Source: Candidatus Staskawiczbacteria bacterium RIFCSPLOWO2_01_FULL_33_13
GTDB taxonomy: Bacteria; Patescibacteriota; Minisyncoccia; Minisyncoccales; Staskawiczbacteraceae
Length of the DNA stretch: 64,000 nt
Direction of reading: 5' to 3'
Assembly: GCA_001820215.1 (NCBI GenBank)
Contig: MHOW01000006.1
Location: 47,039-111,038, forward strand
In this document: piece by piece, positions 46,777 through 63,435 of the stretch
How positions within the stretch are numbered: the stretch's first letter is position 1
Layout: every line of letters begins with the position of its first letter
The notes under the pieces: model-generated
The model's input: only the letters and a program-made list of their open reading frames with translations
Databases searched by the model: none
Told to the model about the DNA's origin: nothing
Program-made: the position numbers and the translations under genes

Positions 46777-48132
46777 TTATCCACTATACACTTTTTGTTT
46801 TATAAGGTTTAATTCTTCTGTTAATTTATTATTTTCTTCACTTTCTTGTAGTATTTTTTTGTATGCGTATATGACTGTAGTATGATCCTTGCCCCCAAAT
46901 TTTCTTGCAATTGCAGGAAATGAATATTTTAATTCTTTTCTTAATAAAAACATTGCTATTTGTCTTGGTCTTACAATTTCTTTGCGTCTTGTTTGGTCAA
47001 AAAGATTTTTTTCATCTAAATTATAAAATTTAGCAACCGTTTCAATTATTTTTTTATAGTTTGCAACATCAAAGGGAGAAAATACAAAACCTCGTAATAG
47101 CTTTTTTGCAACTTCTAAATTCAACACATTGTTGTTGATTTTATGGTAAATTAATAAGCTATTTAAGGCTCCCTCTAAATCTCTGATATTCTTTTTAACA
47201 TTTGAGGCGATGTATTCTAAAATATCTTCTGGTAATTCCATATTTTTCTCTTGAAGTTTGGTTTTAAGTATTACAAGCCTTGTTTCATAATCAGGTAGGC
47301 TTACATCAATAGTCATCCCGCCTCCAAATCTTGATTTAAGCCTTTCTTCTAACTCTGATATGGCATTGGGGGGCCTGTCAGACGAAAGGATGATTTGTTT
47401 ATTTTTTTCATATAAAGAATTAAACACATGAAAAAATTCTTCTTGGCTTTTGTTTTTTCCCGATATAAATTGTATATCATCAATAATGAGCACATCTATA
47501 GGGGTAAAACTAGCCTTAAAGCTTTCCATGCTATTGCTCCTAATAGCTGAAACAATATTAGAAACAAGTTTTTCAGAAGGAATATATTTTACTTTATTTT
47601 TTTTATTATTACTGGCTATTTTATTCCCAATTGACTGCATTAAATGGGTTTTGCCTAATCCAACTCCTCCATATATAAATAAGGGGTTGTAGGTGTGTCC
47701 TGGGTTTTCAGATACTGCTAAAGCTGCCGCGTGAGCCAATTCATTAAATCCACCTACTACAAAATTTTCAAAGGTATAACGAGGGTTAAGATTTGTTTCT
47801 TTGTTAATTTTAAACTCATCAAATTTTAACTGTTCTATATTTATATCACTTTCTAGTTTTTCTTTTGTTTCAAAGTTTTTTGATGGTTGTGGGTTAATTT
47901 TAAATTCTAATTCTTTGATAGTGTTGTCTATGTCATGCATTGTTTTAAGTATTAACTTGTAATACTTATTATTCAGCCACTCTTTAGAAAAGGCATTTGG
48001 AACCGAAATTACTATTTTTCCATTTTCTTTAGATGTTATTTCAGTGTTTTGAAACCAGGTTGCAAAATTTGCCTTAGAAATAAAAAGTTGCATTTGCGCC
48101 AAAACTGATTGCCAAAGCTCACTATTGTCCAT
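46777..48132 (-). CDS. dnaA: chromosomal replication initiator DnaA
   Basis: AAA+ Walker A GGVGLGKTHL. C-terminal DnaA-box-binding domain. Confidence 0.9.
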   Translation of the reverse strand: MDNSELWQSVLAQMQLFISKANFATWFQNTEITSKENGKIVISVPNAFSKEWLNNKYYKLILKTMHDIDNTIKELEFKINPQPSKNFETKEKLESDINIEQLKFDEFKINKETNLNPRYTFENFVVGGFNELAHAAALAVSENPGHTYNPLFIYGGVGLGKTHLMQSIGNKIASNNKKNKVKYIPSEKLVSNIVSAIRSNSMESFKASFTPIDVLIIDDIQFISGKNKSQEEFFHVFNSLYEKNKQIILSSDRPPNAISELEERLKSRFGGGMTIDVSLPDYETRLVILKTKLQEKNMELPEDILEYIASNVKKNIRDLEGALNSLLIYHKINNNVLNLEVAKKLLRGFVFSPFDVANYKKIIETVAKFYNLDEKNLFDQTRRKEIVRPRQIAMFLLRKELKYSFPAIARKFGGKDHTTVIYAYKKILQESEENNKLTEELNLIKQKVYSG

Positions 48133-48222
48133 AATTTTTTGATTAAATATTTAATAGTCTATTTTTTCTTTTTGTTGTTTATTTGTCAAATATAAACAAA
48201 ATATACACATATGTTATTAAGT

Positions 48223-48231
48223 TGTGGATAA
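48223..48231 (-). promoter_or_regulatory. perfect DnaA box (TTATCCACA on the minus strand)
   Basis: tgtggataa, 90 bp upstream of dnaA. Confidence 0.45.
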
Positions 48232-48440
48232 ATTGTGTGATATTTTAAATACAGACGCACAATATATTTAATTAGAAATTTTAAATTTGTAATTAAAACG
48301 CTATTTGACCAAATGTGTTTTTTTTGGTAAGTTAACAATATTATCCTTGAGTTATAAAATACTTTCACAGTCTTTTTATAGAGTATTTGGTGATTTAAGG
48401 ATTTATACTACACTATACAATATTATTAATATAAAAAACA

Positions 48441-48575
48441 ATGAGTTTCACTTATAACCCAAAAAAGAAAAAGAGAAAAAGAACACACGGTTTCTTAAAG
48501 AGAAGCCAAACAAAAAAGGGTCAACAGGTTATTCAAAGGAGAAGGGCTAAGGGAAGGAAGAAATTAAGCGTGTAA
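48441..48575 (+). CDS. rpmH: 50S ribosomal protein L34
   Basis: [44 protein letters not shown] (44 aa). Not in the ORF track because it is under 60 aa. Canonical position before rnpA. Confidence 0.8.
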
Positions 48576-48638
48576 TGAGCTGGTTACAAAACTCCATATT
48601 TATCCTCAAAAGCGAGTTTTGTAACCATCTCAACTTAA

Positions 48639-48980
48639 GTGTTGCCAAAAATAAACAGGTTAACCAAAAAAAAAGATTTTGACTCGGTTTTTAAGAAAGG
48701 AAAAAGCATAAAAGTTGATTTTTTAATATTTAAAATATTAAAAAATGATCTAAAAGAAAGCCGTTTCGGTTTTGTGGTTAGTAAAACTATTTCTAAAAAA
48801 GCTGTTATAAGAAATAAAGTTAAAAGAAGGCTGCGAGAGGCAGTTTTTAAAGGATTAAAAAATCAGGTTACTAATACGGCTAAACCATCAGATATTGTTA
48901 TTATAACTTTGCCAGGAATTGAGAAAAGAGAATTTTTGCAACTACAAGAAGTTGTCGATAAATTTTTAAATAAAATATAA
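48639..48980 (+). CDS. rnpA: ribonuclease P protein component
   Basis: LPKINRLTKKKDFDSVF. Basic, 113 aa. Position rpmH-rnpA-yidC. Confidence 0.75.
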   Translation: MLPKINRLTKKKDFDSVFKKGKSIKVDFLIFKILKNDLKESRFGFVVSKTISKKAVIRNKVKRRLREAVFKGLKNQVTNTAKPSDIVIITLPGIEKREFLQLQEVVDKFLNKI

Positions 48981-48994
48981 TAATTTTTTACACT

Positions 48995-49723
48995 ATGTTT
49001 GGTTTTTTAGTAGATGTCTTTAATATTCTTTTATACCAGCCTCTTTTTAATGCATTGGTGTTAATTTATAATTATCTGCCTGGGCATGATTTTGGTATTG
49101 CAATTATCCTTCTTACAATCATTATAAGAGTTATTATTTATCCCCTTTCGGTAAAATCCCTTAACTCACAAAAAAATCTTCAAAAACTGCAACCACAATT
49201 ACAGGAAATACAAAAAAAATATAAAAATGATAAAGAAAAACAAGCTAGGGAAACCCTAGAACTTTATCGTAAAGAAAAAATAAATCCATTTAGCGGATTG
49301 TTTTTAGCATTGATTCAGCTCCCTATTTTAATTGCATTATATAGTGTGTTTAATAATGGATTAAAATCTATAGAGCTTAATAATTTGTATAGTTTTGTAT
49401 CAAATCCAGTTAATATTAACCCAATATTCTTGGGTGCTATAAATTTATCTTTGCCAAATTTATTTTTTGCCTTCCTTGCGGGTATTGTTCAATTTTTTCA
49501 AACAAAAATGATTATGCCTAAATTGGATAAAAATCAGGCAAAAGAAAATCAAATGACCGCCATGATGCAAAAACAAATGGTTTATTTTTTTCCTTTTATA
49601 ACAGTAATAATCCTTTTAAAATTACCCTCAGCTTTAGGCCTTTACTGGATTGCAAGCGGATTGTTTTCTATAGCACAACAGTATTTTATTCTTAAAGATA
49701 AACCAAATAAGCCTTCTTTGTAA
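48995..49723 (+). CDS. yidC: membrane protein insertase YidC (short form)
   Basis: Five-TM Oxa1-like core. IIIRVIIYPL motif region. Confidence 0.8.
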   Translation: MFGFLVDVFNILLYQPLFNALVLIYNYLPGHDFGIAIILLTIIIRVIIYPLSVKSLNSQKNLQKLQPQLQEIQKKYKNDKEKQARETLELYRKEKINPFSGLFLALIQLPILIALYSVFNNGLKSIELNNLYSFVSNPVNINPIFLGAINLSLPNLFFAFLAGIVQFFQTKMIMPKLDKNQAKENQMTAMMQKQMVYFFPFITVIILLKLPSALGLYWIASGLFSIAQQYFILKDKPNKPSL

Positions 49724-49737
49724 GTCTATTAATAAAA

Positions 49738-50271
49738 ATGGAAGAACAAGATTTAGTAATAATTAAAAAAACTATTGAAGAGTTGTTTGAAAAAATGACT
49801 GTTGTGGTTAGTAGTTTGGAATTAAAGCAAAGCTCTCAAGAAAAAAAAACCGAAAATTTTGATTCGCTTAATAGTATCAATGAAACTGTTTTACCTTTAC
49901 AAAGCGAACCTAGAGAAATAATTCACATAAATATAAATTTAGAAGAACCTCAATTTTTAATAGGCCAGAATGGCCAGACTTTATTTGAACTAGAGCGTAT
50001 TGTAAAGATAATATTAAATAAAAAAATCCAAAAGTTTTTTTATTTGAATTTAGATATTAATAATTATAAAGACAAAAAAGTTGAATATTTAAAAAACTTA
50101 GCAAGGGATTCAGCCAACGAAGTTGCGTTAACTAAACAAGAAAAAGCGTTAAGTCCTATGTTAGCTTATGAAAGAAGAATTATTCATACCGAATTAGCTC
50201 AAAGACAAGATGTTATTACAAGGAGCCAGGGCAATGGAGAAAATAGATGCGTGGTAATATGCCCTCGCTAA
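49738..50271 (+). CDS. jag: Jag/KhpB-like RNA-binding protein (KH + R3H)
   Basis: C-terminal R3H YERRIIHTELA. Follows yidC as in many bacteria. Confidence 0.7.
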   Translation: MEEQDLVIIKKTIEELFEKMTVVVSSLELKQSSQEKKTENFDSLNSINETVLPLQSEPREIIHININLEEPQFLIGQNGQTLFELERIVKIILNKKIQKFFYLNLDINNYKDKKVEYLKNLARDSANEVALTKQEKALSPMLAYERRIIHTELAQRQDVITRSQGNGENRCVVICPR

Positions 50272-50332: not shown

Positions 50333-51952
50333 TTAATAAGTAGGAATAATATTTATCATGTATATGTACCTTTCTTTTTCTGGATCAAGGATATTATCAA
50401 ATATCAAGCTTATTTTCTTTTTACCGTAATAAATTTTACATTTTTTGTCATCAAGATTACGCCTAAATCTAGAATAAAGAACAATCATATAACTCCTTTT
50501 ATTTTCTACAAGCCCTATACTTCTTGCGCATGTTTTGTCGTTACTAGTACAGTGATTAAACTCTGGTGCATCAGAAGTAAATTGTGTTGAGGGTGGGTCC
50601 GTGCCTATTGGCGATGCTGTATGATCAACGCTCCATAGCCAATAATCAAGTATTCCCAATCTACTTCCATCGGGTGGACTATTCTCGCCATTTCTATGTG
50701 CCCAAAGTTCTCGATCTATAGTACTACTCGATAAAAAATATTTAAAATTTTTGCTTAAAAAGATAATTGCAGGGCTACTAGAAGGCGTTTGGTTTCTGTA
50801 GTGGAAAATGGTTCCATATTTAGGATTAAAATATCTATCATCAAAAGATGTAGATGTGCTTGGGGCTACGGACAAACATATGGTACCCTCGTCCCGTTTA
50901 ATTAGCGAAGGATTTGATGTTGCTAAATTCACTCCCCCTTGTAATTCCGAACACATACCACTTCCGTTTTGTAAAATAACTCCATAGCGGTCTTTTGGAT
51001 CGGCACCACTAATAATTTTTACTGATCGAGTTATGTTGGCAGTGGGAGTTTCATCGGAATCATAGGGTGGTATTAGGCCACTTTCTTTTTGTACATAAGA
51101 GCTTATTCCGGTGCAGTCCTCTGTTAAATAATAATAAATACCAGATTCTTTGATTTTTGATATATAAGAATATATTGTAGAAGAAGAATCATTTGGGCTG
51201 AATGGATCAAAAAGAAGCATTATGCTTGCTGGTTGAATATTATTTAAATCGGGGCTTGTACATGGTAATTCCCAAACTCTTAAATTGCCCAATCCAGATG
51301 CATTTCTTGTTCGGTCTATTTGAAAATATGGTTGATCATATACCCAAAGTAAAAGGGGTTTACCACCTCGACTTGAATCGCAAATATAAACAAGAGCATC
51401 AGTTCCAGGAGGCGCACCATCAAAAATATGACCCGGATCCAAATCAGCACCAGTATCCCAAATATCATCTTCTCGTTCGTTTGCTGCTTGATAATCAATT
51501 ATGGTAGTAACTATGGGTCCAGGCGTGCTAGTGCGAGTTCTATACCAAAGCTGTCCACCTTGACTTCCATAACTTGCCACGCTTGGGTTTATAAAATCTG
51601 GGCTTATTGTCTGAAATACTATCACGGAAATCATTAATAAAACTATTCCTAAAATACAGTCAAAAATCTTTTTTCTTGCATTTCCAATCGCAACCGGGCT
51701 TCCCATAGAAGCCATTATTAAAATGCTATTTATTACTATAGTTATGACACCAATTACACCAGCTGATACTACTAAAAACCAAAAGATATAACCAATATAT
51801 GTTTCTAAAGAAATTCCTACTCCATCTCCTATAGTTGGCCCACCCGGAATATTAGGGTAAGTTAATTCAAGGGCAAAAGCGTATTGGATTGCTAAAAAGC
51901 ACAGTATTATTATTGCAATGATGATAATTGGGTATTTGTATTTTTTGTTCAT
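50333..51952 (-). CDS. pilin-like (VirB2/TrbC-type two-TM N-terminus) protein fused to a large Pro/Ser/Thr/Gly-rich extracellular domain
   Basis: Signal/TM helix, then a second long TM (GYIFWFLVVSAGVIGVITIVINSILIMASMG). About 420-aa C-terminal domain whose DNA is visibly GC-richer than its surroundings. Confidence 0.4.
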   Translation of the reverse strand: MNKKYKYPIIIIAIIILCFLAIQYAFALELTYPNIPGGPTIGDGVGISLETYIGYIFWFLVVSAGVIGVITIVINSILIMASMGSPVAIGNARKKIFDCILGIVLLMISVIVFQTISPDFINPSVASYGSQGGQLWYRTRTSTPGPIVTTIIDYQAANEREDDIWDTGADLDPGHIFDGAPPGTDALVYICDSSRGGKPLLLWVYDQPYFQIDRTRNASGLGNLRVWELPCTSPDLNNIQPASIMLLFDPFSPNDSSSTIYSYISKIKESGIYYYLTEDCTGISSYVQKESGLIPPYDSDETPTANITRSVKIISGADPKDRYGVILQNGSGMCSELQGGVNLATSNPSLIKRDEGTICLSVAPSTSTSFDDRYFNPKYGTIFHYRNQTPSSSPAIIFLSKNFKYFLSSSTIDRELWAHRNGENSPPDGSRLGILDYWLWSVDHTASPIGTDPPSTQFTSDAPEFNHCTSNDKTCARSIGLVENKRSYMIVLYSRFRRNLDDKKCKIYYGKKKISLIFDNILDPEKERYIYMINIIPTY

Positions 51953-52030
51953 TTTTACTAAATTACTAGCTTAAAAATTATTACCTTTATTCTTTAATAC
52001 TACTATATTTTAATCGCCAGTAAAACTATA

Positions 52031-53824
52031 TTATTTTAATTTTCTTCTTGCTTCTTTTATTTTTTCAACTTCTTGGGGGCTGGTAGTTATTATTTGATCT
52101 TCTGTATAGCTGGCTTTTATATTAATATATACATGTTTTTTACCCGCAAAAAACAACCCTTCTCCAACAGGAGCACTTAATAATAATTCTTCTTCTTGCT
52201 TGGTTAAATCAAATATTTTTTCTAATACATCAATAGCCGCAGTGGATTGTTTTAACAGCATTTGCAAAGATGAATTGGTGATAATAGCCTTTCCATAACC
52301 TGAACCCATAAAATCTTCCACATCTTGGGTAATAGTGGTTACTCCCATCCAGTATTTTCTGCATCTTTTTATTAAGCTGAATAAAAATGAAGCTCCGTCT
52401 TCTGATTGCATCAGCCACCAAGCCTCATCAACCACTAAAATTCTCTTTTTTATTTTTGTTCTTACAATATTCCATATGTATCGCATTACAATAAACAAAG
52501 CAATGGGTTTTAAAGATTCTTCCATGTCTCTTATTCCAAATACAATGAATTTTTTATCAATAGTAATATTAGATTTTTGGTTAAAAAATCCAGCAAAAGT
52601 CCCTTCGGTAAATTTTTTAAGGCGTCTTGCTAAAGATTCTGCTCCTTCCATATTTTCTAAAATTTCTCCAAAATCAGACATTAGTGGTATTTTTTCCTCC
52701 CAGGTAGCAGGGTCACTTTGAGGTGTAATATCTCTTATTGCGTAAGTTTCTGTGAGGGCTTGGTCTAAAATACTATCTTCTTCAGCAGTTAATCCTCCAA
52801 GCATTATTCTTAAAAGTCCCACCAAATTTATAATATTTGACCTTAGTATGTCTTCTGGATTATCATCTGGGCCTGGGGTAGGAAGGTCAAAAGGATTTAC
52901 ATGGTTTCCAGAAGACAAAGATATTTTAAAGAAATTACCCCCTATGCCATCGGCTAAAAATTCATATTCATTTTCGGGGTCAATTACAATTACATCAATA
53001 TCCATCATCAAGTATCTTAAAATTTCTAATTTAACCGCGTATGATTTACCCGATCCGGATTTTGCAAAAACAACCATATTGGCGTTTTCTAAGGTGAACC
53101 TATCAAACAATACAAGTGAATTATTGTGCCGGTTAATGCCATATAAAATTCCTTCATTAGAGCTTAAGTCAAAAGAAACAAATGGAAACGCAGTTGAAAG
53201 CGGCTCTGTGTTCATTGGAACATTAATGCCAATTAAGTCCATTCCATAAGGGCTGGCTGAAATAAAGCCTTCTTTTTGCTTAAATAAAGCTGGTTTTATA
53301 TAAATTAAACGAGGTTCAAAAATTGACCTTAGGGTAGTTTCAACTTCACGCATTTCTTCTTCTGAATTTTGATATACGGTAATATAAAGCCCAAATCTAA
53401 ACATTTTTTCTTGGGCGGTTATTATTTTATCTCTAAGGTTTTCAATATCTTGGTAGCCGGTTTCAAGAGCTGGATCGCGAATGAGTCCCTTTTCTTGTCT
53501 TTCCATTAATTCTGAAGATACTTGGGTAACTTTTGACCGTAATTTTTTTAAAATTAATTCACTGCTTACCGGATGTATAAAAAAAGATATATCCATTGGT
53601 ACATTTAGGTTTATTGCGGGAGAAAGCCAGCCGGTATTTAAATATCTTGGATAAGAAAATATAAAAAAAGATTTGGCGATTTTTTCTCCAAGCTTTATAT
53701 AGTTTTGATTTATGCCAACATAAGAAGGCGCTATAACATCCTTTATATTAAGAATTTCTTCTTGAAATATTTTATCATCAATATCAATATTTCTTTTATT
53801 TTTATTTAAAAAATTAAAATTCAC
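52031..53824 (-). CDS. VirB4/TrbE/CagE-family conjugal-transfer-type ATPase
   Basis: Walker A FAKSGSGKSYA. DPENEY and VVDEAW (Walker B) motifs. Confidence 0.8.
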   Translation of the reverse strand: MNFNFLNKNKRNIDIDDKIFQEEILNIKDVIAPSYVGINQNYIKLGEKIAKSFFIFSYPRYLNTGWLSPAINLNVPMDISFFIHPVSSELILKKLRSKVTQVSSELMERQEKGLIRDPALETGYQDIENLRDKIITAQEKMFRFGLYITVYQNSEEEMREVETTLRSIFEPRLIYIKPALFKQKEGFISASPYGMDLIGINVPMNTEPLSTAFPFVSFDLSSNEGILYGINRHNNSLVLFDRFTLENANMVVFAKSGSGKSYAVKLEILRYLMMDIDVIVIDPENEYEFLADGIGGNFFKISLSSGNHVNPFDLPTPGPDDNPEDILRSNIINLVGLLRIMLGGLTAEEDSILDQALTETYAIRDITPQSDPATWEEKIPLMSDFGEILENMEGAESLARRLKKFTEGTFAGFFNQKSNITIDKKFIVFGIRDMEESLKPIALFIVMRYIWNIVRTKIKKRILVVDEAWWLMQSEDGASFLFSLIKRCRKYWMGVTTITQDVEDFMGSGYGKAIITNSSLQMLLKQSTAAIDVLEKIFDLTKQEEELLLSAPVGEGLFFAGKKHVYINIKASYTEDQIITTSPQEVEKIKEARRKLK

Positions 53825-53860
53825 TTTAGTATTTTTTTAATATTATTAAAAAATTAATTT

Positions 53861-53895
53861 CAAAATTCAAAAACCTAAATTCTAAACAAATTCAA
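53861..53895. repeat. left arm of 34-bp inverted repeat bracketing the four-helix-bundle ORF
   Basis: caaaattcaaaaacctaaattctaaacaaattcaa. Confidence 0.65.
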
Positions 53896-53931
53896 AATCC
53901 AAATTTTCTAAATCCAAAACTATTTAATATT

Positions 53932-54294
53932 TTATTTACTATTCTCTAAAATAGATCCAAATATTTTCATTAGTTCAATGCATTCTTTAATGAGCGATTC
54001 TTTGTCTTGTTGATTTTCTTTTAATGGTTCAGATAAATTTAACCACAACCTGCTTTCTTTAGATTCTTTTCTGCAAATCTTTATTCTCATTAGAAAGTCT
54101 TTTTTGCCTAGAGATTCATTTGCTTCAATATAATTGGCTGCCTGTGAACCGGAGGATCTAACGAGTTGTTTTCCGTATTCTATATTTGAAATTGTTCTGA
54201 GAAGAGCCTTAACATACTCTCTTGTTTTTTGAGCAAATAGATAAGTTCTATCTTCTAAATCATATTGCGGTTTTGAATTTTGGATTTCATTCAT
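53932..54294 (-). CDS. four-helix-bundle protein (23S rRNA intervening-sequence protein family)
   Basis: ...YLFAQKTREYVKALLRTISN...QLVRSSGSQAANYIEANESLGKKDFLMRIKICRKESKESRLWL matches the four-helix-bundle pattern. Confidence 0.6.
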   Translation of the reverse strand: MNEIQNSKPQYDLEDRTYLFAQKTREYVKALLRTISNIEYGKQLVRSSGSQAANYIEANESLGKKDFLMRIKICRKESKESRLWLNLSEPLKENQQDKESLIKECIELMKIFGSILENSK

Positions 54295-54328
54295 TTGAAT
54301 TTGTTTAGGATTTAGGTTTTTGAATTTT
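54295..54328. repeat. right arm of inverted repeat (33/34 match to the left arm)
   Basis: ttgaatttgtttaggatttaggtttttgaatttt. Its reverse complement equals the left arm with 1 mismatch. Confidence 0.65.
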
Positions 54329-54361
54329 GGATTTTTGTTGAAATAAATTTCAAATTAGGAT

Positions 54362-55024
54362 TTATTTCAATAATTCCGGTGATATTTTTGGCGAATAACC
54401 TATTTCAGCTTCGTTAGGGTGGTGTATAGTCCAAAATAGTTCAATTAATTCGGGGGTGGTTAAGGGTATTACATCTAAACCACATCTTTTTAATCCCATT
54501 GCTAAAAATTCCATTCTTTGCCAAAGTTGATTTTTTGATTTTTCAAAGTCATCATCTTTAAATTGTTGAATTTTAGCTTTATCTTTACTAAATAAATTCA
54601 AAAAATTAAATTGTTTTGTAACGCCCCCTACACCGAATATTTCCACTAAACTGTAAGGGACTACCACATAAAAATTCTTTGTCATAATTGAGTCCCCTTG
54701 CACCAATTCTTTTATGAATTCCCGATAAGAACCCGTTTGGGCTTTTAGTAATTCATTATCCTGTTTTTCTTCTAAATTTTTAATGCTATCCAAATATGGG
54801 GTGATATTTATCTTTCTTGATTGAATGATAATTTGGCATGAAAAATCTAATGAATTTAAAAAGCTTTGAAAAGAATAAATAATGGCGTTTTGTTCGTCGT
54901 CTGATTTTAATGCAAAATTCATAGAGGAAACCATTAGTACTCCCCTTATATTATTATTTTTTAAAATCAAAACACCTTCTTTAATGTCTTGAATTTCTAA
55001 AAATTCTTGTGTCGTAATGTTCAT
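54362..55024 (-). CDS. hypothetical protein in the T4SS-like cluster
   Basis: No TM, no clear motif. Confidence 0.3.
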   Translation of the reverse strand: MNITTQEFLEIQDIKEGVLILKNNNIRGVLMVSSMNFALKSDDEQNAIIYSFQSFLNSLDFSCQIIIQSRKINITPYLDSIKNLEEKQDNELLKAQTGSYREFIKELVQGDSIMTKNFYVVVPYSLVEIFGVGGVTKQFNFLNLFSKDKAKIQQFKDDDFEKSKNQLWQRMEFLAMGLKRCGLDVIPLTTPELIELFWTIHHPNEAEIGYSPKISPELLK

Positions 55025-55040
55025 AATTGTAAATATAAAA

Positions 55041-55487
55041 TCACTTCTTTGTTTCTATTTTTCTTTTAACTTCCTTCAATTTACTAGCTTGTAATATTGA
55101 AAAATGGGATGGTTTTGTAGTATTTATTTCTTGATTGTCATGCCTTGTAATCAATTTTTCTTTACTTTGTAAATTTGGGTTTAAGCTTTTATATGGATAT
55201 GGGGATTTTTTCTTCTCCCAAATATAGGTTTTATTTTCAAATAAAAATCCAAAAAAGTGTAAAAATACTGTTACTAAAGAAGCATTATCTATTTTTATAA
55301 AAGCTATTACTGAAACTATTCCCATTATTACTATTGAACAAATTACAAAAAAATAAAACGGCAAAAGATAATAAAATACTATAGCAGTACTTAGTCCTCC
55401 CACAAGCAAAAAAAACTGCTTGAAAGTTAAAAAGTAAATTATCTTTCCTTCTTGTTCAATAAATTGTGGAGTTGGATATTGGGCCAT
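55041..55487 (-). CDS. PrgI/VirB3-like small membrane protein
   Basis: 148 aa with a two-TM hairpin (FLLVGGLSTAIVFYYLLPFYFFVICSIVIMGIVSVIAF). Adjacent to the VirB4-like gene. Confidence 0.4.
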   Translation of the reverse strand: MAQYPTPQFIEQEGKIIYFLTFKQFFLLVGGLSTAIVFYYLLPFYFFVICSIVIMGIVSVIAFIKIDNASLVTVFLHFFGFLFENKTYIWEKKKSPYPYKSLNPNLQSKEKLITRHDNQEINTTKPSHFSILQASKLKEVKRKIETKK

Positions 55488-55509
55488 TTGTAATGCTCTT
55501 AATTATTAT

Positions 55510-56061
55510 TTATTCAATCGGTTCTCTATAAGTATCTGGCTTGCTTTCTAGCTTTGGTTGTGGTTTCGGCTCTTCTTTGGTCACTCTTTGTTGGGCATGT
55601 TGAATGTTTTCTGCATTTTCTTCTACATCCAAAATGTCTACTTTTTTAATATAAGAATCAGGTGGCATCTCTTTTGGCACAGGAATATTGCTATTCCCCC
55701 TTATTTTGTTTAACAATTCTTGCCTGTATCTTTCTTTTTGATCCACTTCTTTTTTAACTTCTATTTCTTCTTCTGGTTGGGCTAAGGAAACAACATTATT
55801 TTTTATATCGTGAGCCAATTTATCTGCTTTTTCTTGAGCGATATATAAATCTTTTTTCAGTATTTCTATTATATCTTTCATAGTAACTCCTTTTTCCATT
55901 GCTACAATTTTCTTAGCCACTTTAAATATAACAACTTCTGGATTTTCTTTTTCAAAATCCCAAAAATCTTCTTGGCTAAGAGTTAAATTATGTTTTTTAA
56001 CTAATTCTGAAATTGCTTGATCTATTTGGTCAGAAAAGTTTAACACATATTCTGTTTTCAT
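55510..56061 (-). CDS. hypothetical charged protein in the T4SS-like cluster
   Basis: No TM, charged. Confidence 0.3.
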   Translation of the reverse strand: MKTEYVLNFSDQIDQAISELVKKHNLTLSQEDFWDFEKENPEVVIFKVAKKIVAMEKGVTMKDIIEILKKDLYIAQEKADKLAHDIKNNVVSLAQPEEEIEVKKEVDQKERYRQELLNKIRGNSNIPVPKEMPPDSYIKKVDILDVEENAENIQHAQQRVTKEEPKPQPKLESKPDTYREPIE

Positions 56062-56090
56062 ATAACTTGCATAGAAATAATTTTATAAAA

Positions 56091-59000
56091 TTACCCTTTT
56101 TCTTTTAATTTTTCTTGCATAATTTCTCCCTTCATTTCATCGGCTATAACTTCATAAGCATCTTCAAGGCTCATATATTCTCTTCCTGTTTCTTTAATTC
56201 TTTTATTTAACTCTATCATTCTTTCTGCTATTTTTGCTTTTTCCATATCAGTGAATTCTTCCTTCCCTTCTATTCTAGCTTTTATTCTTTTTAAATATTC
56301 TATTGGATTTGTTTTAAAACCATATTTCCCTCCCCATTGTGCGATATCTTGAGCCTTGTCCTTATCTGTTGCTTTACTTGCTGCTCTTCTTTTTGCTGTA
56401 AGTTTTTCTCTTAGAATTTTTCTCTTTTCTTCTTCAAATCTTCCAGAATAATACTTGGGATCTTTATTAAAACTATTTGAATCTTCAAATACTGCCTTTA
56501 GTTCTCCAAAAGAAGGAAATGTTGGAGGAACTCCAGAAGCATCATATTGTTTTGCAGTTGATTTATTTGATTTTTTTAAATCAACGATTTTTTCTATTAA
56601 ACCATCCCTCTCATTTGTTGTAAGTTTTATGCCCTCTTGTTTCATCTTTTTTGCTTCAACATGATTATAAGCCTCTTTGTGGCTTATAAATGGTGTCTGT
56701 TCATCAATGCCGTATTCTTTTAATTCATCTAGGATTTTTATAGATTCATCTCTTTCTCCTGGAGATAGTTGACCTTCATCTACCCTCTTTTTTCTTAGTA
56801 TTTCTTTTCGGCGAACTTTTGCTCTTAATCCTGCCACTTCCCCTGCTAATTGCTTTTGTTCCTCTTCACTTAGATAGCCCCCACCTATTTTAGAAACTAC
56901 TCCCAAGGCTTCAGTAGTTTCATCTTTTTCTATTTTCGCTTCATCTACTGGGCTCATTCTTATTTCTCCAAAATTCCCCTTAACACCAACTATCTTAGAC
57001 CCTTCTCCTGGTCGCATTTGTGGATCATATGGCTTTGTGTCATCTGGTTTTGCTTCTTCTATGTTTTGTTCGGGTAATTTGTTTGCGCCAGTTACAAATG
57101 CTCTTAAATTTTCTGCTTCCTCAGAACTTGTGCCGACTCCTTGCACATATTTTTCTAGATCCTTAAATCCCTCCGGAGAATTACCGGCTCGATGTATTGC
57201 TTTGGTTGTATAAAATCTCTTTCTAATTTCTTCTTTAACTTCTTTAGTAGCCCCACTTATGGCATCTTCCATCATTGCGCTAGGAATTTGGGCTAAATTC
57301 TTAATGTATTCTGGATCGTCAACATCGGCAACCAAAGATGCATATACCGCTTTTTTTAATTTTGGACCTGCCTTGTCGTCAACAGCTCTCATTTGTTGTG
57401 GGCTATTTGCAATTTGCCTAGCGATTACTGCACCGTATTTTCCACCCAAAACCGAAGAGTCAAGGCGTTCTATATCATACGCGTTTAATGTTTCAGCTTT
57501 TCTTCTAACTACTTCTTCTTTAGCTGCACTGTCTTCGCCAAAAATATGAATACCATCAGAATCTGTTTCGCTCTGTATTCTTTTTACAGCTTCCTTGTCA
57601 AATGCATTCATTCTTATATCTTGTTTCTGATAGTTTCTCCTAGTACTTAAGCCATAATAATCATTTTCTTTCAATAGTTGGTCAATTTTATTTGGATCAG
57701 TTTCCTTGGTATGAAGAAGTTCTCTTCTTGTTAATTCATCTGTAGCCGCTGCTCCTCTCCAGCCACCCTCATCAACCATGGTACGCAAGTCTATATCTGA
57801 AGCCTCTGTTGCAAACTTTCTATCAGCAGTAGAAGCCGCTTGTCTAGTTACTATTTGTTCAGCTTGTTTTTTCATCATAGTGCCCAAAAGACTGTTTGGA
57901 TTAACTATATCGTCTTCGGTGTATTGAAGATCTCGGCCAGTTTTATTGTTGGCAAGATTAACACTACCAACAGCAGTTGTGCCAATAAGTTTTCTTTGCG
58001 CCTCTGCCATTGCCCCCTTATTTAATGTTGCATAATCAGGATCAAAACTTGCAATATCTCTAGCTGAAACCCCTTGGCTTACAGCTTGTTTTACTATTCT
58101 GTCACGCTGTGATTTATCTTTAATAGCATCAAGGGTGCCGTTTCTAGCTAACATTTCGGTGGCCACTGCGCTTTCGGCGGCGGTTCCATTTTCTGCTATG
58201 CTTGCAAGTTTTTTAACATCTTTTATGTTTTTAAATTGTTCTCTAACTGGATCCAATTCTTTTGCTTCTCTATCTTTTTTCACTGTTTCACTTTTGCCCT
58301 TGCCATAAATTTTATCTCTTCCCCAGCTAACTAAACGACTATCAGCTACTTTGTTTTTAACATCTTTTAGGCCATCGGTAATCCCGGTTCTTTTCATTCC
58401 AGCCATGGCGGTAGATGTACCACCCGTTATAATTGCCGATGCTATTTTTGTTGCAACGCTCATAACAGCGCTTGCTATGGGGCCGGATGATTTGTATGTA
58501 AGATGCATTCCTATTGCCAAAAATCCCACTACGATAATAAATTGAAATGTTAAATTTACTAATGCTGTTACGGTGTCTCCTGTAAAAACCCAATTATATG
58601 CCCGTAGCACATTTACCGATAAATTTAAGAAAAAAGCCGCTCCTAATCCAATAAAGCAATATTTTAAAAATTGACCCCACCAGTCTCCAAATAGTTTTTG
58701 GGCTTTTTCATAAGGGAATACATTTAAAGCAAAAGCTAGTGGGGACAATACAAACAAAATAGCTAAAAGCACATACCTTTGTATTAATAACAATGCAAAG
58801 CAAAATAAAATAAATGCCACAAAAAAATAAAGAGCATCAAAAAGCAAGTTAATGCCAAAATAGGCAAAAGCTTTATAAATATTTGTTTCGGCGATTGGTT
58901 CTAATTCCCAAATGGTTTCATTCCACACATCATCTATAATTAATACAATATTGGCTTCTTGATCGCCTCCCACCGTTAAACTTCTCATAATAATATTTGA

Positions 59001-59600
59001 TGAGTCAATAAACAATCCTACTAGCACCACGGAAAAATTAATTAAAATGGCGGTTATTATTATTTTAGGCAGTAAGGCTTTTGCCTTATCAACCATAAAT
59101 CCTAAAATCATCATGGTGCTGGCGGCTATAAATCCTAATACTATTAGCATATTGGCCCAGCTTTTTACCACATTCCATGCGGTGAGAAATTCGGCTCTCC
59201 TAGTTATTGAAAGGTCGGGGTTGTTTATCATTTGGTCTAATACAAACCTGAATAAAACCGCAGATCCATACGCTATATAGAAAAAGATAATAGAGATAAG
59301 ATTAGATATCAATACGACAATAGTAGCAGGCCAGTTAGTGCTTCCCGACATTGCTTCTGAAAATATTTCCCACCCTGTTGCAACAAGGTTTGCCATAAAT
59401 GCAATTCCTTGTGCGGTAAGAACTACGGCATTACCGCTACCAATAACAATATTGCCAAGTGTGGTGCTAAAATCAGTAAACCAGTTAGCTGAAGCTATAT
59501 TTGGCAGAGAAATTCCTATTAAAAAAGCAAACAAAAAAACAGAAAATAGTATTTTCTTTTGTTTAAATATTTTTAATATAGACCTAAAAAAATCAGGCAT
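56091..59600 (-). CDS. VirB6/TrbL-like polytopic membrane protein with about 750-aa charged C-terminal extension
   Basis: N-terminal about 400 aa with at least 6-8 TM helices. Long K/E-rich soluble C-terminus. Confidence 0.45.
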   Translation of the reverse strand: MPDFFRSILKIFKQKKILFSVFLFAFLIGISLPNIASANWFTDFSTTLGNIVIGSGNAVVLTAQGIAFMANLVATGWEIFSEAMSGSTNWPATIVVLISNLISIIFFYIAYGSAVLFRFVLDQMINNPDLSITRRAEFLTAWNVVKSWANMLIVLGFIAASTMMILGFMVDKAKALLPKIIITAILINFSVVLVGLFIDSSNIIMRSLTVGGDQEANIVLIIDDVWNETIWELEPIAETNIYKAFAYFGINLLFDALYFFVAFILFCFALLLIQRYVLLAILFVLSPLAFALNVFPYEKAQKLFGDWWGQFLKYCFIGLGAAFFLNLSVNVLRAYNWVFTGDTVTALVNLTFQFIIVVGFLAIGMHLTYKSSGPIASAVMSVATKIASAIITGGTSTAMAGMKRTGITDGLKDVKNKVADSRLVSWGRDKIYGKGKSETVKKDREAKELDPVREQFKNIKDVKKLASIAENGTAAESAVATEMLARNGTLDAIKDKSQRDRIVKQAVSQGVSARDIASFDPDYATLNKGAMAEAQRKLIGTTAVGSVNLANNKTGRDLQYTEDDIVNPNSLLGTMMKKQAEQIVTRQAASTADRKFATEASDIDLRTMVDEGGWRGAAATDELTRRELLHTKETDPNKIDQLLKENDYYGLSTRRNYQKQDIRMNAFDKEAVKRIQSETDSDGIHIFGEDSAAKEEVVRRKAETLNAYDIERLDSSVLGGKYGAVIARQIANSPQQMRAVDDKAGPKLKKAVYASLVADVDDPEYIKNLAQIPSAMMEDAISGATKEVKEEIRKRFYTTKAIHRAGNSPEGFKDLEKYVQGVGTSSEEAENLRAFVTGANKLPEQNIEEAKPDDTKPYDPQMRPGEGSKIVGVKGNFGEIRMSPVDEAKIEKDETTEALGVVSKIGGGYLSEEEQKQLAGEVAGLRAKVRRKEILRKKRVDEGQLSPGERDESIKILDELKEYGIDEQTPFISHKEAYNHVEAKKMKQEGIKLTTNERDGLIEKIVDLKKSNKSTAKQYDASGVPPTFPSFGELKAVFEDSNSFNKDPKYYSGRFEEEKRKILREKLTAKRRAASKATDKDKAQDIAQWGGKYGFKTNPIEYLKRIKARIEGKEEFTDMEKAKIAERMIELNKRIKETGREYMSLEDAYEVIADEMKGEIMQEKLKEKG

Positions 59601-59768: not shown

Positions 59769-60593
59769 TTATGGATGTTGATAACTATTTGCTAGATTTT
59801 TCCAATCTTCAATAGAAAGAGTTTCTGCTCTTTGTTTTGGATTGGTAGTATTTTTTAATAGCCACAAATTTACTTTTTCCCTGTTTATTTTTAATGATTT
59901 AGAAAAGTTATTTGCTAATTGTTTGCGTGGCTGACTGAAGCCAGATTTTACAATTTTAAAGAATTTTTCATGAGAAATTTCTTCAGATTTTTTAAAAGGA
60001 ATGATTTTTATAATCGCTGAATCAACCTTTGGAGAGGGCCAAAAGCATTTTTTTGAAATATAGGAAATGATTTTTGGTTTGGCATAAAATTGTACAGATA
60101 CTGAAAGTAAGCTCATATTGGGCGGACTAGAACAAATTCTTTGGCCCACTTCTTTTTGAACCATCAATACCATGCTCTCTGGGGGATTTGCAGATTCTAA
60201 AAATTTTCTAATGATTGGTGAGGTTATATAGTATGGGATATTGGCAACTACCTTATAGTGAGTTGGTAGTGAATAGTTGGTATCAAGGAGAGCGTTTCCA
60301 TGGATAATTTCTACATTTTTGTAATCTTTTAGAGTTTCTTTTAATATTTGCACCATTGCGTTATCTTTTTCTATTGCAATGATTTTTTTTGTTTTTTGCG
60401 CCAATTCTTTTGTAAGACCTCCCAAGCCTGGCCCTATTTCTAAAATGGTGTCTTTTGGGTTTAATTCTGCTGCTTCAATAATTTTATTTAAAGTAAAATC
60501 ATCTATTAAAAAATTCTGACCCATTGTTTTTGAGGGGCTTGAGTCATACTTATCTAAAAGATTTTTTATTTCATTTACAGAAAGTAAATTCAT
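59769..60593 (-). CDS. rsmA: 16S rRNA (adenine1518/1519-N6)-dimethyltransferase
   Basis: MGQNFLID...LEIGPGLGGLT SAM-binding motif. Confidence 0.85.
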   Translation of the reverse strand: MNLLSVNEIKNLLDKYDSSPSKTMGQNFLIDDFTLNKIIEAAELNPKDTILEIGPGLGGLTKELAQKTKKIIAIEKDNAMVQILKETLKDYKNVEIIHGNALLDTNYSLPTHYKVVANIPYYITSPIIRKFLESANPPESMVLMVQKEVGQRICSSPPNMSLLSVSVQFYAKPKIISYISKKCFWPSPKVDSAIIKIIPFKKSEEISHEKFFKIVKSGFSQPRKQLANNFSKSLKINREKVNLWLLKNTTNPKQRAETLSIEDWKNLANSYQHP

Positions 60594-60690: not shown

Positions 60691-61833
60691 TTGTTTACAT
60701 TTTTCTACAAAAAATTCATCTATTTGAAGAGCTTTGTTAAAGGTGAATCTAAAACCAAAAAAACCTCATCTGGATTTGCGCGGCACCTAGAATTTAAAAA
60801 GGGATTTTTGAAGAACCCGTTTTTTTATTTCGGGTTTTTTTCTTTGTTTTTATTTGGATTATTGTTTTTTAGTTCGGATGGTTTAGTGGGAATTAGCCAT
60901 TCTAAAAACAATGCAGCTGGATTTTACAAAAATATAGATAATTCAGAAAATAATGATTTATTTTTCAATCAAAATAAATTACTTGCTGTTGAAACCCCGG
61001 ATTTAAAAATAATCCAAGATAATTTTGTGTATGGTATTTCTACGCCTCATATTGTAACAACACAAGTTTTAGGTTCTATGTTTGGTGAATCTTCCTTGGT
61101 TGATAGAAAGGAAATCATTGAATATTCTGTTGAATCGGGAGATACTATTAAGGGCGTTGCAGGGAAGTTTGGCGTTTCGGAAGATACGATAGCTTGGGCT
61201 AATAATATTTCTAAAAATTCAGCCCTTAAGGTTGGCCAGACTCTTGTTATTTTACCGGTTTCTGGTGTTTTACATATTGTGAAAGCAGGAGATACTATAG
61301 GTGCAATAAGCAAAACCTATAAGGCAAAAATGGAAGATATTATTTCTACTAATAGCCTTTCGGGAGAATTAGATATTTTTATTGGGGATATTTTAATTAT
61401 TAAAGGCGGATCAATGCCCCCAAAACCAATATCTTCTATTGTGAGCGCACCTTTAAATGAAAGTTTGTTTATCTATCCAGCAGAGGGGCAAATTACCCAG
61501 GGACTCCATTTTTATAACGCGGTAGATCTTGCTAATAAATGCGGAGCTCCTGTATATGCTGCGGCTTCTGGTGTAGTACAGCGAGTAAGATATGGTTGGA
61601 ATTTTGGGGGTGGAAATCAGGTTACCATTTTACATGCAGGTGGAATTGTAACTTATTATGGCCACCTTATGACTATTTTTGTAAAACCCGGCGATAGTAT
61701 TGATGTGGGTCAAAGGTTGGGGCTTATGGGGAGCACGGGGCTTTCTACGGGATGCCATGTGCATTTTGGTGTTACTGGTGCCAAAAATCCCTTGGCTAAA
61801 TTTTTCATTGGAAGTGTGATTAAATATAAATAA
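60691..61833 (+). CDS. LysM domain + M23 family metallopeptidase
   Basis: N-terminal TM. LysM (DTIKGVAGKFGVSEDTIAWANN). M23 HxH (GCHVHFG). Confidence 0.8.
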   Translation: MFTFFYKKFIYLKSFVKGESKTKKTSSGFARHLEFKKGFLKNPFFYFGFFSLFLFGLLFFSSDGLVGISHSKNNAAGFYKNIDNSENNDLFFNQNKLLAVETPDLKIIQDNFVYGISTPHIVTTQVLGSMFGESSLVDRKEIIEYSVESGDTIKGVAGKFGVSEDTIAWANNISKNSALKVGQTLVILPVSGVLHIVKAGDTIGAISKTYKAKMEDIISTNSLSGELDIFIGDILIIKGGSMPPKPISSIVSAPLNESLFIYPAEGQITQGLHFYNAVDLANKCGAPVYAAASGVVQRVRYGWNFGGGNQVTILHAGGIVTYYGHLMTIFVKPGDSIDVGQRLGLMGSTGLSTGCHVHFGVTGAKNPLAKFFIGSVIKYK

Positions 61834-61911: not shown

Positions 61912-63435
61912 TTAGTCTTTTAGTCTATACATTAATGCTTCTGCGATGTGGTCGTGTTGAATATTTTCTGTTCCCGCTAAGTCAGCGATAGTACGAGCTA
62001 CTTTTAAAATTCTATGGTAACCTCGCGCAGAAAGTTTTCCCGAATCAACAAATTGTTTTAACAATATTTGAGACTTTGCATCATGAGTACAATACTTTTT
62101 AATTTCGGGGATTTGCATTTCAGAATTTACTAAAATTTTATCGTTTTTGAAACGCTCTTTTTGAATCTCTCGCACCCTTTCTATTTTTGCCTTTATAATA
62201 CTGCTTTGGTTATCAGTTGAGTCGTGATCTGCCAGTTTTTCATATTTTACAGCAGGAACTTCAATAAAAATATCAATTCTGTCCATTAGGGGCCCCGAAA
62301 GCTTCCTTTTATACATTGAAACTTGTGAAGGCGAACAGATGCAGGCTTTTTCTGGGCTATTTAAAAAACCACACGGACAAGGATTGCTGGCACCCACGAG
62401 CATAAATCGACTTGGAAATGTGAGAGTATTTTTAGCGCGTGAAATAGTAATCTTGCCTTCTTCTATTGGTTGCCTGAGTGATTCTAATACATCTCGATGA
62501 AACTCTGGAAACTCATCTAAAAATAAAACCCCTCTATGAGCTAGTGTAATTTCTCCAGGTCGCAATGGCGTTCCGCCACCTAACAATGAAGCTTCTGAGG
62601 CAATGTGATGAGGGGCACGAAAAGGCCTCTGGTTTACCATTGTTTCATTCTCTTTCAGTAAGCCTGCTACACTATAAATTTTAGTAACCTCTAAGGCCTC
62701 GGTAAAGTTAAGTGCTGGCAAAATAGAGGGAAGTGCTTTTGCTAATAAACTTTTTCCGCCCCCAGGAGGTCCAGAGAAAAACAGATTATGTGCGCCTGCG
62801 GCCGTAATTTCTAAGGCGCGCTTGGCATATTCTTGACCCTTCACCCAACTAATATCAACCATATTTCCTACCTGCGAGGGCGAGTCTTGGTTTTTGACTG
62901 TATGTGGCTCAATCTTTAATCTTTTCTCCAAGTAAGCAAGGGCTTCTGATAAAGAGTCAACGCCGATAATTTTTACTTCTTTAATTAAAGCAGCTTCATT
63001 AGCATTTTGCTTAGGTAAAATTAACTCTTCAAATCCCTTTTTTGCAGCCAATAACGCAAAAGACAAAGCTCCTTTTATGGGTCTTAGTTTTCCATCTAAA
63101 GAAAGTTCTCCTAAAAATATTTTGTCTTCCGGGTTAAAATTAGTTTGTTTTGAAGCAATTAAAAAAGCCAATGCAATTGGCAAATCGTACAAAGAACCCT
63201 CTTTTTTTAAGTCAGCCGGCGCTAAGTTTACTAAAATTCTAAGAGTTCTACTATGAGGTGATAATAATTTAGAGCTTTTAATTGCAGATTCTATTCTCTC
63301 TTGAGATTCTACAATGCTTTTGTCGGGCAGTCCAACAATAGTAAAAGATCGCAATCCGTGTGACACATCAATTTCTACTTCAACTAACTGTGCATCTAAT
63401 CCTACAATGGCAGCTGAAAAAACTTTTGAAGGCAT
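61912..63435 (-). CDS. comM: YifB/ComM family Mg-chelatase-like AAA+ ATPase
   Basis: N-terminus MPSKVFSAAIVGLDAQLVEVEIDVSHGLRSFTIVGLPD. Walker A GPPGGGKS. C4 cluster. Confidence 0.8.
   Translation of the reverse strand: MPSKVFSAAIVGLDAQLVEVEIDVSHGLRSFTIVGLPDKSIVESQERIESAIKSSKLLSPHSRTLRILVNLAPADLKKEGSLYDLPIALAFLIASKQTNFNPEDKIFLGELSLDGKLRPIKGALSFALLAAKKGFEELILPKQNANEAALIKEVKIIGVDSLSEALAYLEKRLKIEPHTVKNQDSPSQVGNMVDISWVKGQEYAKRALEITAAGAHNLFFSGPPGGGKSLLAKALPSILPALNFTEALEVTKIYSVAGLLKENETMVNQRPFRAPHHIASEASLLGGGTPLRPGEITLAHRGVLFLDEFPEFHRDVLESLRQPIEEGKITISRAKNTLTFPSRFMLVGASNPCPCGFLNSPEKACICSPSQVSMYKRKLSGPLMDRIDIFIEVPAVKYEKLADHDSTDNQSSIIKAKIERVREIQKERFKNDKILVNSEMQIPEIKKYCTHDAKSQILLKQFVDSGKLSARGYHRILKVARTIADLAGTENIQHDHIAEALMYRLKD

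Follow-up and report, generated by a model that had tools for sequence, protein, structure and literature searches.

What does a type IV secretion system (T4SS) without a relaxase or a coupling protein do beside the replication origin of an ultra-small, host-dependent bacterium? The question is raised by a stretch of 64,000 nucleotides from the Candidatus Staskawiczbacteria genome RIFCSPLOWO2_01_FULL_33_13 (contig MHOW01000006.1), hereafter the window, in which seven minus-strand open reading frames (ORFs) fill positions 50333–59600, between rsmA and the jag-yidC-rnpA-rpmH-dnaA-dnaN block. An earlier reading, made from the letters without database searches (the sequence-only reading), had assigned all seven to a T4SS-like cluster, and we found every ORF where it had placed it. 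Six of the seven genes make up one T4SS, and the seventh is unrelated to secretion. The system is very probably a chromosomal, vertically inherited T4SS of the Patescibacteria type, derived from the Gram-positive conjugation machinery of the mating-pair formation class FATA (MPF-FATA) and re-used for a non-conjugative purpose. The seven genes, each with the evidence that identifies it, are as follows.

56091–59600, minus strand: extended VirB6/TrbL-like protein, 1169 aa (homologue profiles and fold comparison)
55510–56061, minus strand: conserved unannotated protein, 183 aa (homologue search of related loci)
55041–55487, minus strand: PrgI/VirB3-like protein, 148 aa (Pfam match and orthologues)
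54362–55024, minus strand: TrsD-like protein, 220 aa (NCBIfam VirB4_plasma, TrsD/TraD and CD1110)
53932–54294, minus strand: four-helix-bundle gene of the IVP family (intervening-sequence protein of 23S rRNA), 120 aa (TIGR02436, PF05635)
52031–53824, minus strand: VirB4 ATPase, 597 aa (NCBIfam CD1110, Pfam P-loop_TraG)
50333–51952, minus strand: VirB2-like T4SS_pilin domain with ectodomain, 539 aa (family profile; PF18895 in relatives)

The identity of the 597-aa protein as a VirB4 ATPase of the MPF-FATA/CD1110 type is solid. It matched the NCBIfam family 'VirB4-like conjugal transfer ATPase, CD1110 family' at 3.3e-106, scoring 356 bits where the curated cutoff is 325, and Pfam P-loop_TraG at 1e-27. 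The Walker A motif GSGKS (residues 257–261; 53042–53056) and the Walker B motif VVDEAW (residues 464–469; 52418–52435), which the sequence-only reading had already reported for this ATPase, are both intact. Relatives were found in at least 590 genome loci; the best 80 are almost entirely metagenome-assembled genomes (MAGs) of Patescibacteria, several of them evidently misnamed, and the closest belong to Candidatus Staskawiczbacteria and other Paceibacteria. By sequence comparison, VirB4 appears to be related to the MPF-FATA class and to lie inside the Patescibacteria clade; a survey of Patescibacteria described a monophyletic VirB4 clade related to MPF-FATA, with TrsD, PrgI/VirB3, VirB6 and PF18895 pilins widespread near virB4 (Quinonero-Coronel et al. 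2025, PMC12102498).

The 597-aa protein covers positions 166–732 of the 752-position VirB4 profile, and the 220-aa protein is a detached homologue of the VirB4 N-terminal domain that supplies the missing part. The latter aligned with NCBIfam VirB4_plasma (1.4e-9, profile positions 104–233), TrsD/TraD (1.7e-6) and the CD1110 VirB4 family (2.2e-5, profile positions 5–119), and carries a precomputed PF26593 TraC-like match. Its gene adjoins virB4 in 80 of 83 loci; here only the IVP cassette separates the two. A prgI homologue lies immediately upstream of trsD in 64 of the 83 loci, and the 148-aa protein in this position has two hydrophobic segments (residues 19–37 and 46–64) that correspond to the two transmembrane segments of the PrgI/VirB3-like protein proposed earlier. 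Its own Pfam PrgI match (1.1e-4, 23.1 bits) lies below the cutoff of 27; the assignment holds because PF12666 is matched by all 17 of the syntenic orthologues, at best with 1.4e-8. Three proteins of the cluster had been left as unknown in the sequence-only reading; one, the 183-aa protein, does lack annotation, whereas the other two are the TrsD-like protein and the IVP-family gene product.

The 1169-aa protein gave no direct match in Pfam or NCBIfam, and its identity as a VirB6/TrbL-like protein holds up indirectly, through homologues and a predicted structure. A search recovered 124 homologues, all unannotated 'hypothetical' proteins, 640–1557 aa long, of Candidate Phyla Radiation (CPR) bacteria, three of which (E-values of 1e-25 to 1e-21) pass the gathering score of Pfam TrbL/VirB6 (PF04610). 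Precomputed PF19590 labels on these homologues were not reproduced with the current Pfam at E ≤0.01, and PF04610 was used instead. A profile of the VirB6 family run against PDB sequences found no VirB6; only comparison of folds found one. The top three Foldseek matches in the PDB to the AlphaFold2 model are TrwI/VirB6 chains of R388 (8rt9_F, 8rtd_L and 7o3v_J), with a probability of 1.00 and a target TM-score of 0.50–0.54.

The protein has the architecture of an extended VirB6, with a hydrophobic core and a large hydrophilic C-terminal domain. A signal-like N-terminus is followed by the hydrophobic VirB6 domain at residues ~70–370, which is modelled with pLDDT >90. The sequence-only reading had described the remainder as a charged extension of ~750 aa, and residues 451–1169 are indeed 35% charged; they are not low-complexity throughout, however, as residues ~420–830 are predicted to form a folded all-alpha domain (pLDDT 78–96 at 420–680 and ~70–96 at 420–830) with weak ARM/HEAT-like matches. 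Residues 838–1169 form a low-confidence charged helical tail. Residues 451–1169 contain no cysteine, and a cytoplasmic location of the extension would fit this absence. Across 80 loci, only residues ~66–450 are conserved, and homologues range from 600 to 1557 aa (600–1240 aa in ~25 syntenic loci).

We treat the 183-aa protein as a genuine sixth T4SS component. It has no Pfam or NCBIfam match, and 35 family members gave only scattered chance matches to Pfam. Its 37 homologues, found with jackhmmer in related loci, always lie between VirB6 and prgI on the strand of the T4SS genes. The family has an N-terminal helical domain of ~75 aa and a charged low-complexity linker, and 18 of 35 members end in the C-terminal motif D-x-Y-R-E-P-I-E. 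The protein has no predicted transmembrane segment, is soluble and fast-evolving, and is 100% identical to UR31_C0013G0023 of GW2011_GWA2_33_14. In more distant classes, the motif gives way to a larger conserved C-terminal domain peculiar to those classes, which ends in ...LN.xLRF.

In the 539-aa protein, residues 1 to ~122 comprise a signal peptide and a hydrophobic hairpin of two helices, and a beta-rich ectodomain of ~415 aa follows. It gave no direct match in Pfam or NCBIfam, with PF18895 falling below the Pfam reporting threshold. A word-indexed search returned just two relatives and a full HMMER scan was required, which returned 1837, many of them 450–600 aa long and with similarity that spans most of the protein. 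When relatives, with the 539-aa protein left out, were used to make a profile of the N-terminal region, it matched this protein at 2.9e-40 and nothing else in the window, and 57 of 69 relatives match Pfam T4SS_pilin (PF18895). These results bear out the earlier description of a pilin-like protein with two transmembrane helices fused to a large extracellular domain. Eight cysteines of the ectodomain are invariant or nearly so among relatives, which suggests that it is extracellular and disulfide-bonded; together with the positively charged loop GNARKK between the two hydrophobic helices, they point to an outward orientation. No structural match was found for the fusion family.

A polymerising pilin of the VirB2/TraA type is a short two-helix subunit of ~70–130 aa. 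Here the hairpin is present but a globular domain of 415 aa is fused to its C-terminus, and polymerisation of a hairpin that bears a 45-kDa head is doubtful; the 539-aa protein may rather cap a structure as its tip or act as an adhesin anchored in the membrane. Pilin-domain proteins that follow virB4 in relatives are 395–2057 aa long. The interval from virB4 to jag varies in content among relatives: it holds zero to four pilin-domain proteins of 395–1520 aa, some of which carry adhesin-type modules (InlB B-repeat, SpaA-like, Ig and fn3) and a few of which carry Peptidase_C39-like domains. Strain-level hypervariability of the ectodomain was considered and rejected, as assemblies differ by 7–16 single-nucleotide polymorphisms per 20 kb with 0 in the 539-aa gene. 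We also rejected an equation of this protein with KKP41924.1, the VirB2 match of the survey; it is KKP42906.1.

The seventh gene belongs to a cassette resembling an intervening sequence (IVS).

53856–54334: IVS-like cassette with the IVP gene (53932–54294) inside; inverted-repeat arms at 53856–53896 and 54294–54334

The IVP gene matched TIGR02436 at 1e-15 and PF05635 at 5.7e-9. The 41-nt inverted repeat around it is 93% complementary, and such a pair of arms occurred in 0 of 100 shuffles of the window. RNA folding places the whole IVP ORF within a long stem formed by the repeat (z = -4.5). All ten intact IVP genes examined in the window and related loci had flanking inverted-repeat scores of 15–33, against a mean of 7.7 (sd 1.9) for 400 control ORFs. 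In relatives, the IVP gene stands at other positions of the cluster, bracketed by inverted repeats of unrelated sequence, which suggests that the cassette is mobile or processed by RNase III. Intervening sequences of 23S rRNA can encode an ORF of the IVP/S23p family between inverted repeats. The cassette shares with these classical elements an IVP-family ORF enclosed by a long stem of flanking inverted repeats and differs in that it sits between two protein-coding genes and not inside a 23S or 16S rRNA helix; it is the architecture of an rRNA intervening sequence moved into the spacer of an mRNA operon. No rRNA gene is present in the window. A diversity-generating retroelement linked to the Avd-like IVP gene was also considered, and no reverse-transcriptase domain was found in Pfam scans of window ORFs of at least 100 aa. 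The presence of such a cassette in a T4SS cluster looks undescribed.

The next question is whether the cluster is a resident of the chromosome or a mobile element lodged beside the origin. Its surroundings are made up of the following features.

45256–50271: replication-origin gene block with dnaN, dnaA, rpmH (48441–48575), rnpA, yidC and jag (Pfam scan)
59769–60593, minus strand: rsmA/ksgA (Pfam RrnaAD, 1.8e-58)
60691–61833, plus strand: LysM-LysM-Peptidase_M23 protein (Pfam M23 1.2e-25, LysM 9.5e-21)
61912–63435: comM

PBP1A lies beyond dnaN on the side of the replication origin (oriC), and rsmA, the LysM-M23 peptidase and comM lie on the other. The gene of the pilin fusion converges on the oriC block across a 61-bp spacer, a junction found again in ~25 related loci. 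The upstream border is formed by rsmA, 168 bp from VirB6 on the same strand; rsmA is directly upstream of VirB6 in 17 loci, and the order comM-M23-rsmA-VirB6 is kept in 12. DnaA-box matches cluster around dnaA (46488, 46570, 46777, 48223, which is perfect, and 48600). The G+C content of the cluster, 0.29–0.36, is inside the range of the window, with no shift in composition. Promoter and terminator scans performed no better than shuffles and were uninformative on operon structure.

In a Pfam scan of all ORFs of at least 100 aa in the 64 kb, we found no relaxase, no type IV coupling protein (T4CP), VirD4 or FtsK-type ATPase, no integrase and no VirB8–11 domains, and no VirB5 is present at the cluster. 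The absences listed by the sequence-only reading are therefore confirmed for the window, except that 'no VirB1' is perhaps too strong, as the LysM-M23 peptidase lies two genes upstream. VirB1-type matches with M23/LysM domains have been reported in association with virB4 in Paceibacteria (PMC12102498), and this protein is a candidate cell-wall hydrolase that could stand in for VirB1.

Gene order argues for residence on the chromosome. In ~25 Paceibacteria loci it reads rsmA, VirB6, the 183-aa family, in places small ORFs, prgI, trsD, virB4, one to four pilin-domain proteins (395–1520 aa), jag, yidC, rnpA, dnaA, dnaN and PBP1A, and lineages as distant as Magasanikbacteria, Kerfeldbacteria and Falkowbacteria still have the VirB6-PrgI-TrsD-VirB4 core. 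Because this order is kept across dozens of Paceibacteria genomes, the cluster is vertically inherited and not an island. An island was rejected also for want of a composition shift, an integrase or a flanking tRNA, in agreement with the earlier placement beside the oriC block between housekeeping flanks. The hallmarks of an integrative conjugative element (ICE), namely an integrase or recombinase, a tRNA border and a patchy distribution, are lacking: neither a relaxase, nor VirD4, nor an integrase adjoins the cluster, its synteny is fixed, and the sole tRNA of the window (13680–13764) is 36 kb away.

Among close relatives, median identity is 76% for VirB4 and 70% for TrsD, compared with 79% for DnaA, and falls to 40% for PrgI, 33% for VirB6 and 27% for the pilin fusion, as expected for envelope or host-facing parts. 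The near-DnaA values of VirB4 and TrsD indicate that the cluster is under selection. They bear on whether it could be the decaying, functionless relic of a conjugative element integrated long ago. The cluster lacks many canonical components (VirB8, VirB1, T4CP and relaxase), an unrelated cassette stands between trsD and virB4, and virB4 is broken in two public assemblies. Against this, VirB4 and TrsD equal DnaA in conservation, no catalytic motif is damaged, the six genes are intact in the window and in independent assemblies, and a homologous system is essential in Saccharibacteria; the 'broken' copies coincide with scaffold gaps, seen as runs of N, or with gaps that older assemblies collapsed. 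We regard decay as close to refuted and give it next to no credence.

The broken copies come from the species of the window itself. Across the cluster, the window is at least 99.9% identical to contigs of GW2011_GWA2_33_14 (GCA_000989665.1) and RIFCSPHIGHO2_02_FULL_33_16 (GCA_001820135.1), which represent the same Rifle-aquifer species and in which the cluster proteins are annotated as 'hypothetical'. Table S1 of the survey lists both as 'Presence of VirB4: No', and its Table S3 gives none of the cluster genes for GCA_000989665.1 (PMC12102498). In the latter assembly, short deletions truncate trsD (window 54323–54430) and split virB4 (52621–52688), each at a place where a sister ENA scaffold has runs of N; virB4 of GCA_001820135.1 is cut off by the end of its contig. 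The survey scored the species as VirB4-negative because the public assemblies break virB4, and all six T4SS genes are intact in the window and in independent JGI/ENA contigs. One of the breaks coincides with the IVP cassette. Contigs of several independent assemblies of this species start or end within the prgI-trsD-IVP stretch (~54300–55500), perhaps because strains differ locally or because a repeat there is hard to assemble.

The same tables bear on whether the relaxase and coupling protein are merely encoded elsewhere, so that the cluster would be a genuine machine for conjugation or mobilisation. T4CP genes often lie far from virB4, the VirB4 described here scores above the cutoff curated for a conjugative equivalog family, and Table S3 lists, elsewhere in the genome of this species, two T4CP-profile matches (KKP42383.1 and KKP43477.1) along with one VirB2-profile match (PMC12102498). 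The survey lists no relaxase for this genome; 'no coupling protein' is established only for the 64-kb window. The T4CP-profile matches recur with identical coverage in nearly every genome of Table S3, and for this reason we suspect that the two represent a housekeeping FtsK/HerA-like protein. Relaxases are near-absent from the phylum (109, in 103 of the Patescibacteria genomes surveyed) and seldom lie near virB4, and T4CP homologues are seldom close to it either (PMC12102498). Unlike a mobile element, the cluster is fixed at one chromosomal site across class-level divergence. Taken together, these observations make conjugation a very improbable function.

If not conjugation, what? The sequence-only reading had suggested host attachment or DNA uptake, and a non-conjugative role is probable by analogy, being consistent with our results and with the literature (PMC10633639, PMC12102498, PMC12857230). 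The Saccharibacterium Southlakia epibionticum cannot grow as an epibiont without the homologous cluster, pilin genes included, which encodes an unusual Gram-positive-like T4SS that lacks any recognisable relaxase or coupling protein (Wang et al. 2023, PMC10633639); this requirement is independent of ComEC (PMC10633639, PMC12857230). For a cultivated relative, it has been suggested that tube-like structures where it meets its host are T4SS pili (bioRxiv 10.64898/2026.06.21.733656). Published proposals include the import of host nucleic acid or other macromolecules and the export of effectors; import of DNA or other macromolecules is the favoured hypothesis of the survey (PMC12102498).

A narrower form of the import hypothesis would make the cluster a dedicated DNA-uptake (competence) T4SS, like Helicobacter ComB or archaeal Ced, that feeds DprA, ComM and Ruv, with imported DNA serving recombination or the salvage of nucleotides. 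In its favour, DNA-processing genes of the export type are absent, comM is the third gene upstream (61912–63435), dprA (17027–17890), ruvA, ruvB and ruvC are in the same window, and the T4SS of the ABY1 class co-localises with comF, recG and radA (PMC12102498). Yet the comM/dprA neighbourhood is ordinary housekeeping synteny, and transformation of S. epibionticum needs ComEC and type IV pili, whereas its T4SS is essential even though ComEC is dispensable. Moreover, VirB4 is nearest to Gram-positive conjugative types, and the CedB and CedD profiles matched only short stretches of it (4.6e-12 and 1e-3, respectively). We consider a dedicated competence machine improbable.

For the preferred reading, a conjugation-derived apparatus turned to host interaction, a working model can be sketched. 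PrgI and TrsD would tether a VirB4 hexamer to the membrane, where VirB6 would serve as the central platform or channel, with its ARM-like domain and charged tail probably in the cytoplasm. VirB4 would pull the 539-aa protein's two-helix pilin domain out of the membrane and onto VirB6, where it may form a short fibre; alternatively, it may remain a stalk anchored in the membrane. In both cases the disulfide-rich ectodomain would face outward and serve as a host-recognition module, and the LysM-M23 peptidase could open the cell wall. Macromolecules might then move between epibiont and host cell, in one direction or the other. The oriC-adjacent position may give the genes a high dosage.

Several observations weigh against this interpretation. 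Its functional part is argued by analogy with one Saccharibacterium and with no member of the Paceibacteria, and the gene-dosage idea is hypothetical for slow-growing CPR bacteria. A coupling ATPase could be encoded elsewhere, given the T4CP-profile matches in the genome of the species, and a VirB8-like protein was not found. The window has no short stand-alone T4SS_pilin gene, and a helical filament of the VirB2 type may be unable to accommodate 45 kDa of extra domain on each subunit. For VirB6, the E-value of the structural match is weak (0.04) despite the probability of 1.00, the positive-inside count for its topology is ambiguous, and the VirB6 of R388 lies mostly outside the membrane, which bears on the topology proposed here.

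A bolder elaboration is conceivable, in which the Paceibacteria 'pilin' has ceased to be a plain filament subunit and is a family of surface proteins assembled by VirB4 and VirB6 and carrying a disulfide-locked head, of a fold not recognised so far, for recognising or docking to the host, the ARM-like domain of VirB6 and the 183-aa YREPIE protein replace the coupling protein as a cytoplasmic module that recruits substrates or partners, and this variant of the T4SS imports host macromolecules. We hold it to be rather unlikely as a whole.

Patescibacteria account for much of the diversity of bacteria, and the T4SS is among the few machines known to be essential for their host-dependent lifestyle. 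The locus offers no new principle; what it provides is a copy, intact and correctly assembled, from a groundwater species that is well sampled and yet counted as VirB4-free in the survey, and it indicates that VirB4-based surveys undercount T4SSs where assemblies break at the IVP cassette. It also brings into focus uncharacterised parts: the pilin-ectodomain fusions, which are candidate determinants of host specificity, the folded domain of VirB6, and the small protein with a terminal peptide motif.

Elsewhere in the window, competence and recombination genes are dispersed: dprA (17027–17890), a T2SSE/PilB-type ATPase gene (37224–38573), comM (61912–63435), ruvA (22719–23288), ruvB (38810–39823) and ruvC (41811–42329). 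A small PD-(D/E)XK (PDDEXK_3) protein (29325–29723) lies by dnaX/holA-like genes, and a 254-aa protein (30850–31614) has an IS200-like Y1 transposase domain. A 369-aa ORF (15840–16949), which shares 4 nt with the start of topA, weakly matches LAGLIDADG_3 (1.9e-4), and two ORFs of 790 aa (25751–28123) and 323 aa (31667–32638) have no Pfam match at E ≤1e-5. A 391-aa protein (39859–41034) contains two stretches of Lamin Tail Domain (4.1e-31), a domain common in surface or DNA-binding proteins of CPR bacteria.

How does the system compare with those already known? The Helicobacter pylori ComB and archaeal Ced systems are likewise driven by a VirB4 and lack a relaxase, and are possible functional analogues for import. 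ComB, however, has diderm core parts, the Ced profiles match short stretches of the ATPase only, and no shared accessory genes were found. The closest structural counterpart of VirB6 residues ~70–370 is TrwI/VirB6 of R388 (7o3v, 8rt9 and 8rtd), over ~270 aligned columns; the identity is 14–17%, and the conjugative system of R388 is of the diderm kind and has VirB5 at its tip. Extended VirB6 proteins constitute a recognised yet unexplained class, which includes the Rvh paralogues of Rickettsiales and MPF-FA homologues of 700–900 residues and shares with the protein described here an N-terminal hydrophobic multi-helix domain and a hydrophilic C-terminal region (2025 review, PMC12857230). The extension in the window has no detectable sequence similarity to theirs, and ~400 aa of it are predicted to be confidently alpha-helical.

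The MPF-FATA systems (CTn2 CD1110 of C. difficile, PrgH-PrgI-PrgJ of pCF10 and TrsC-TrsD-TrsE of pGO1) have in common with the window a CD1110-type VirB4 with an adjacent PrgI-family VirB3 and TrsD-like protein, as well as the lack of the outer-membrane core components VirB7, VirB9 and VirB10. The window differs in having no relaxase, T4CP, PrgK/TrsG-type hydrolase or VirB8-like PrgL and in not residing on a plasmid or ICE; it also encodes a VirB2-like pilin domain, which Gram-positive MPF-FATA systems lack. The giant VirB6 and the pilin fusion, which the sequence-only reading had singled out as unusual, are so in comparison with textbook T4SSs but are the rule within the lineage.

The nearest known system is that of the Patescibacteria clade, represented by S. 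epibionticum SEML1_0006-0019. The system itself, its oriC position, the missing relaxase and a non-conjugative role in host interaction are already published (Wang et al. 2023; Quinonero-Coronel et al. 2025). The pilin-ectodomain fusions, the folded VirB6 domain and the YREPIE family look undescribed, at least as far as the main texts on Patescibacteria T4SSs discuss its parts; in the main texts of Wang et al. 2023 and Quinonero-Coronel et al. 2025, the 183-aa YREPIE family is not named. In contrast to the Saccharibacteria, which have an array of six sequence-divergent, structurally conserved pilins, the window has a single pilin-domain gene, fused to a Cys-rich ectodomain of 415 aa. Its VirB6, at 1169 aa with a folded alpha-helical domain, and the IVP cassette that splits trsD from virB4 likewise set it apart from S. 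epibionticum. In Paceibacteria and Microgenomatia the T4SS lies beside dnaA, dnaN, rnpA, ksgA and rpmH (PMC12102498), and this chromosomal site, too, is shared. The window thus has every component by which the Patescibacteria type is recognised: VirB4, TrsD, PrgI/VirB3, VirB6 and a PF18895-type pilin next to virB4, with no relaxase or T4CP nearby and a site near dnaA, all carried by a monoderm, ultra-small and host-dependent bacterium.

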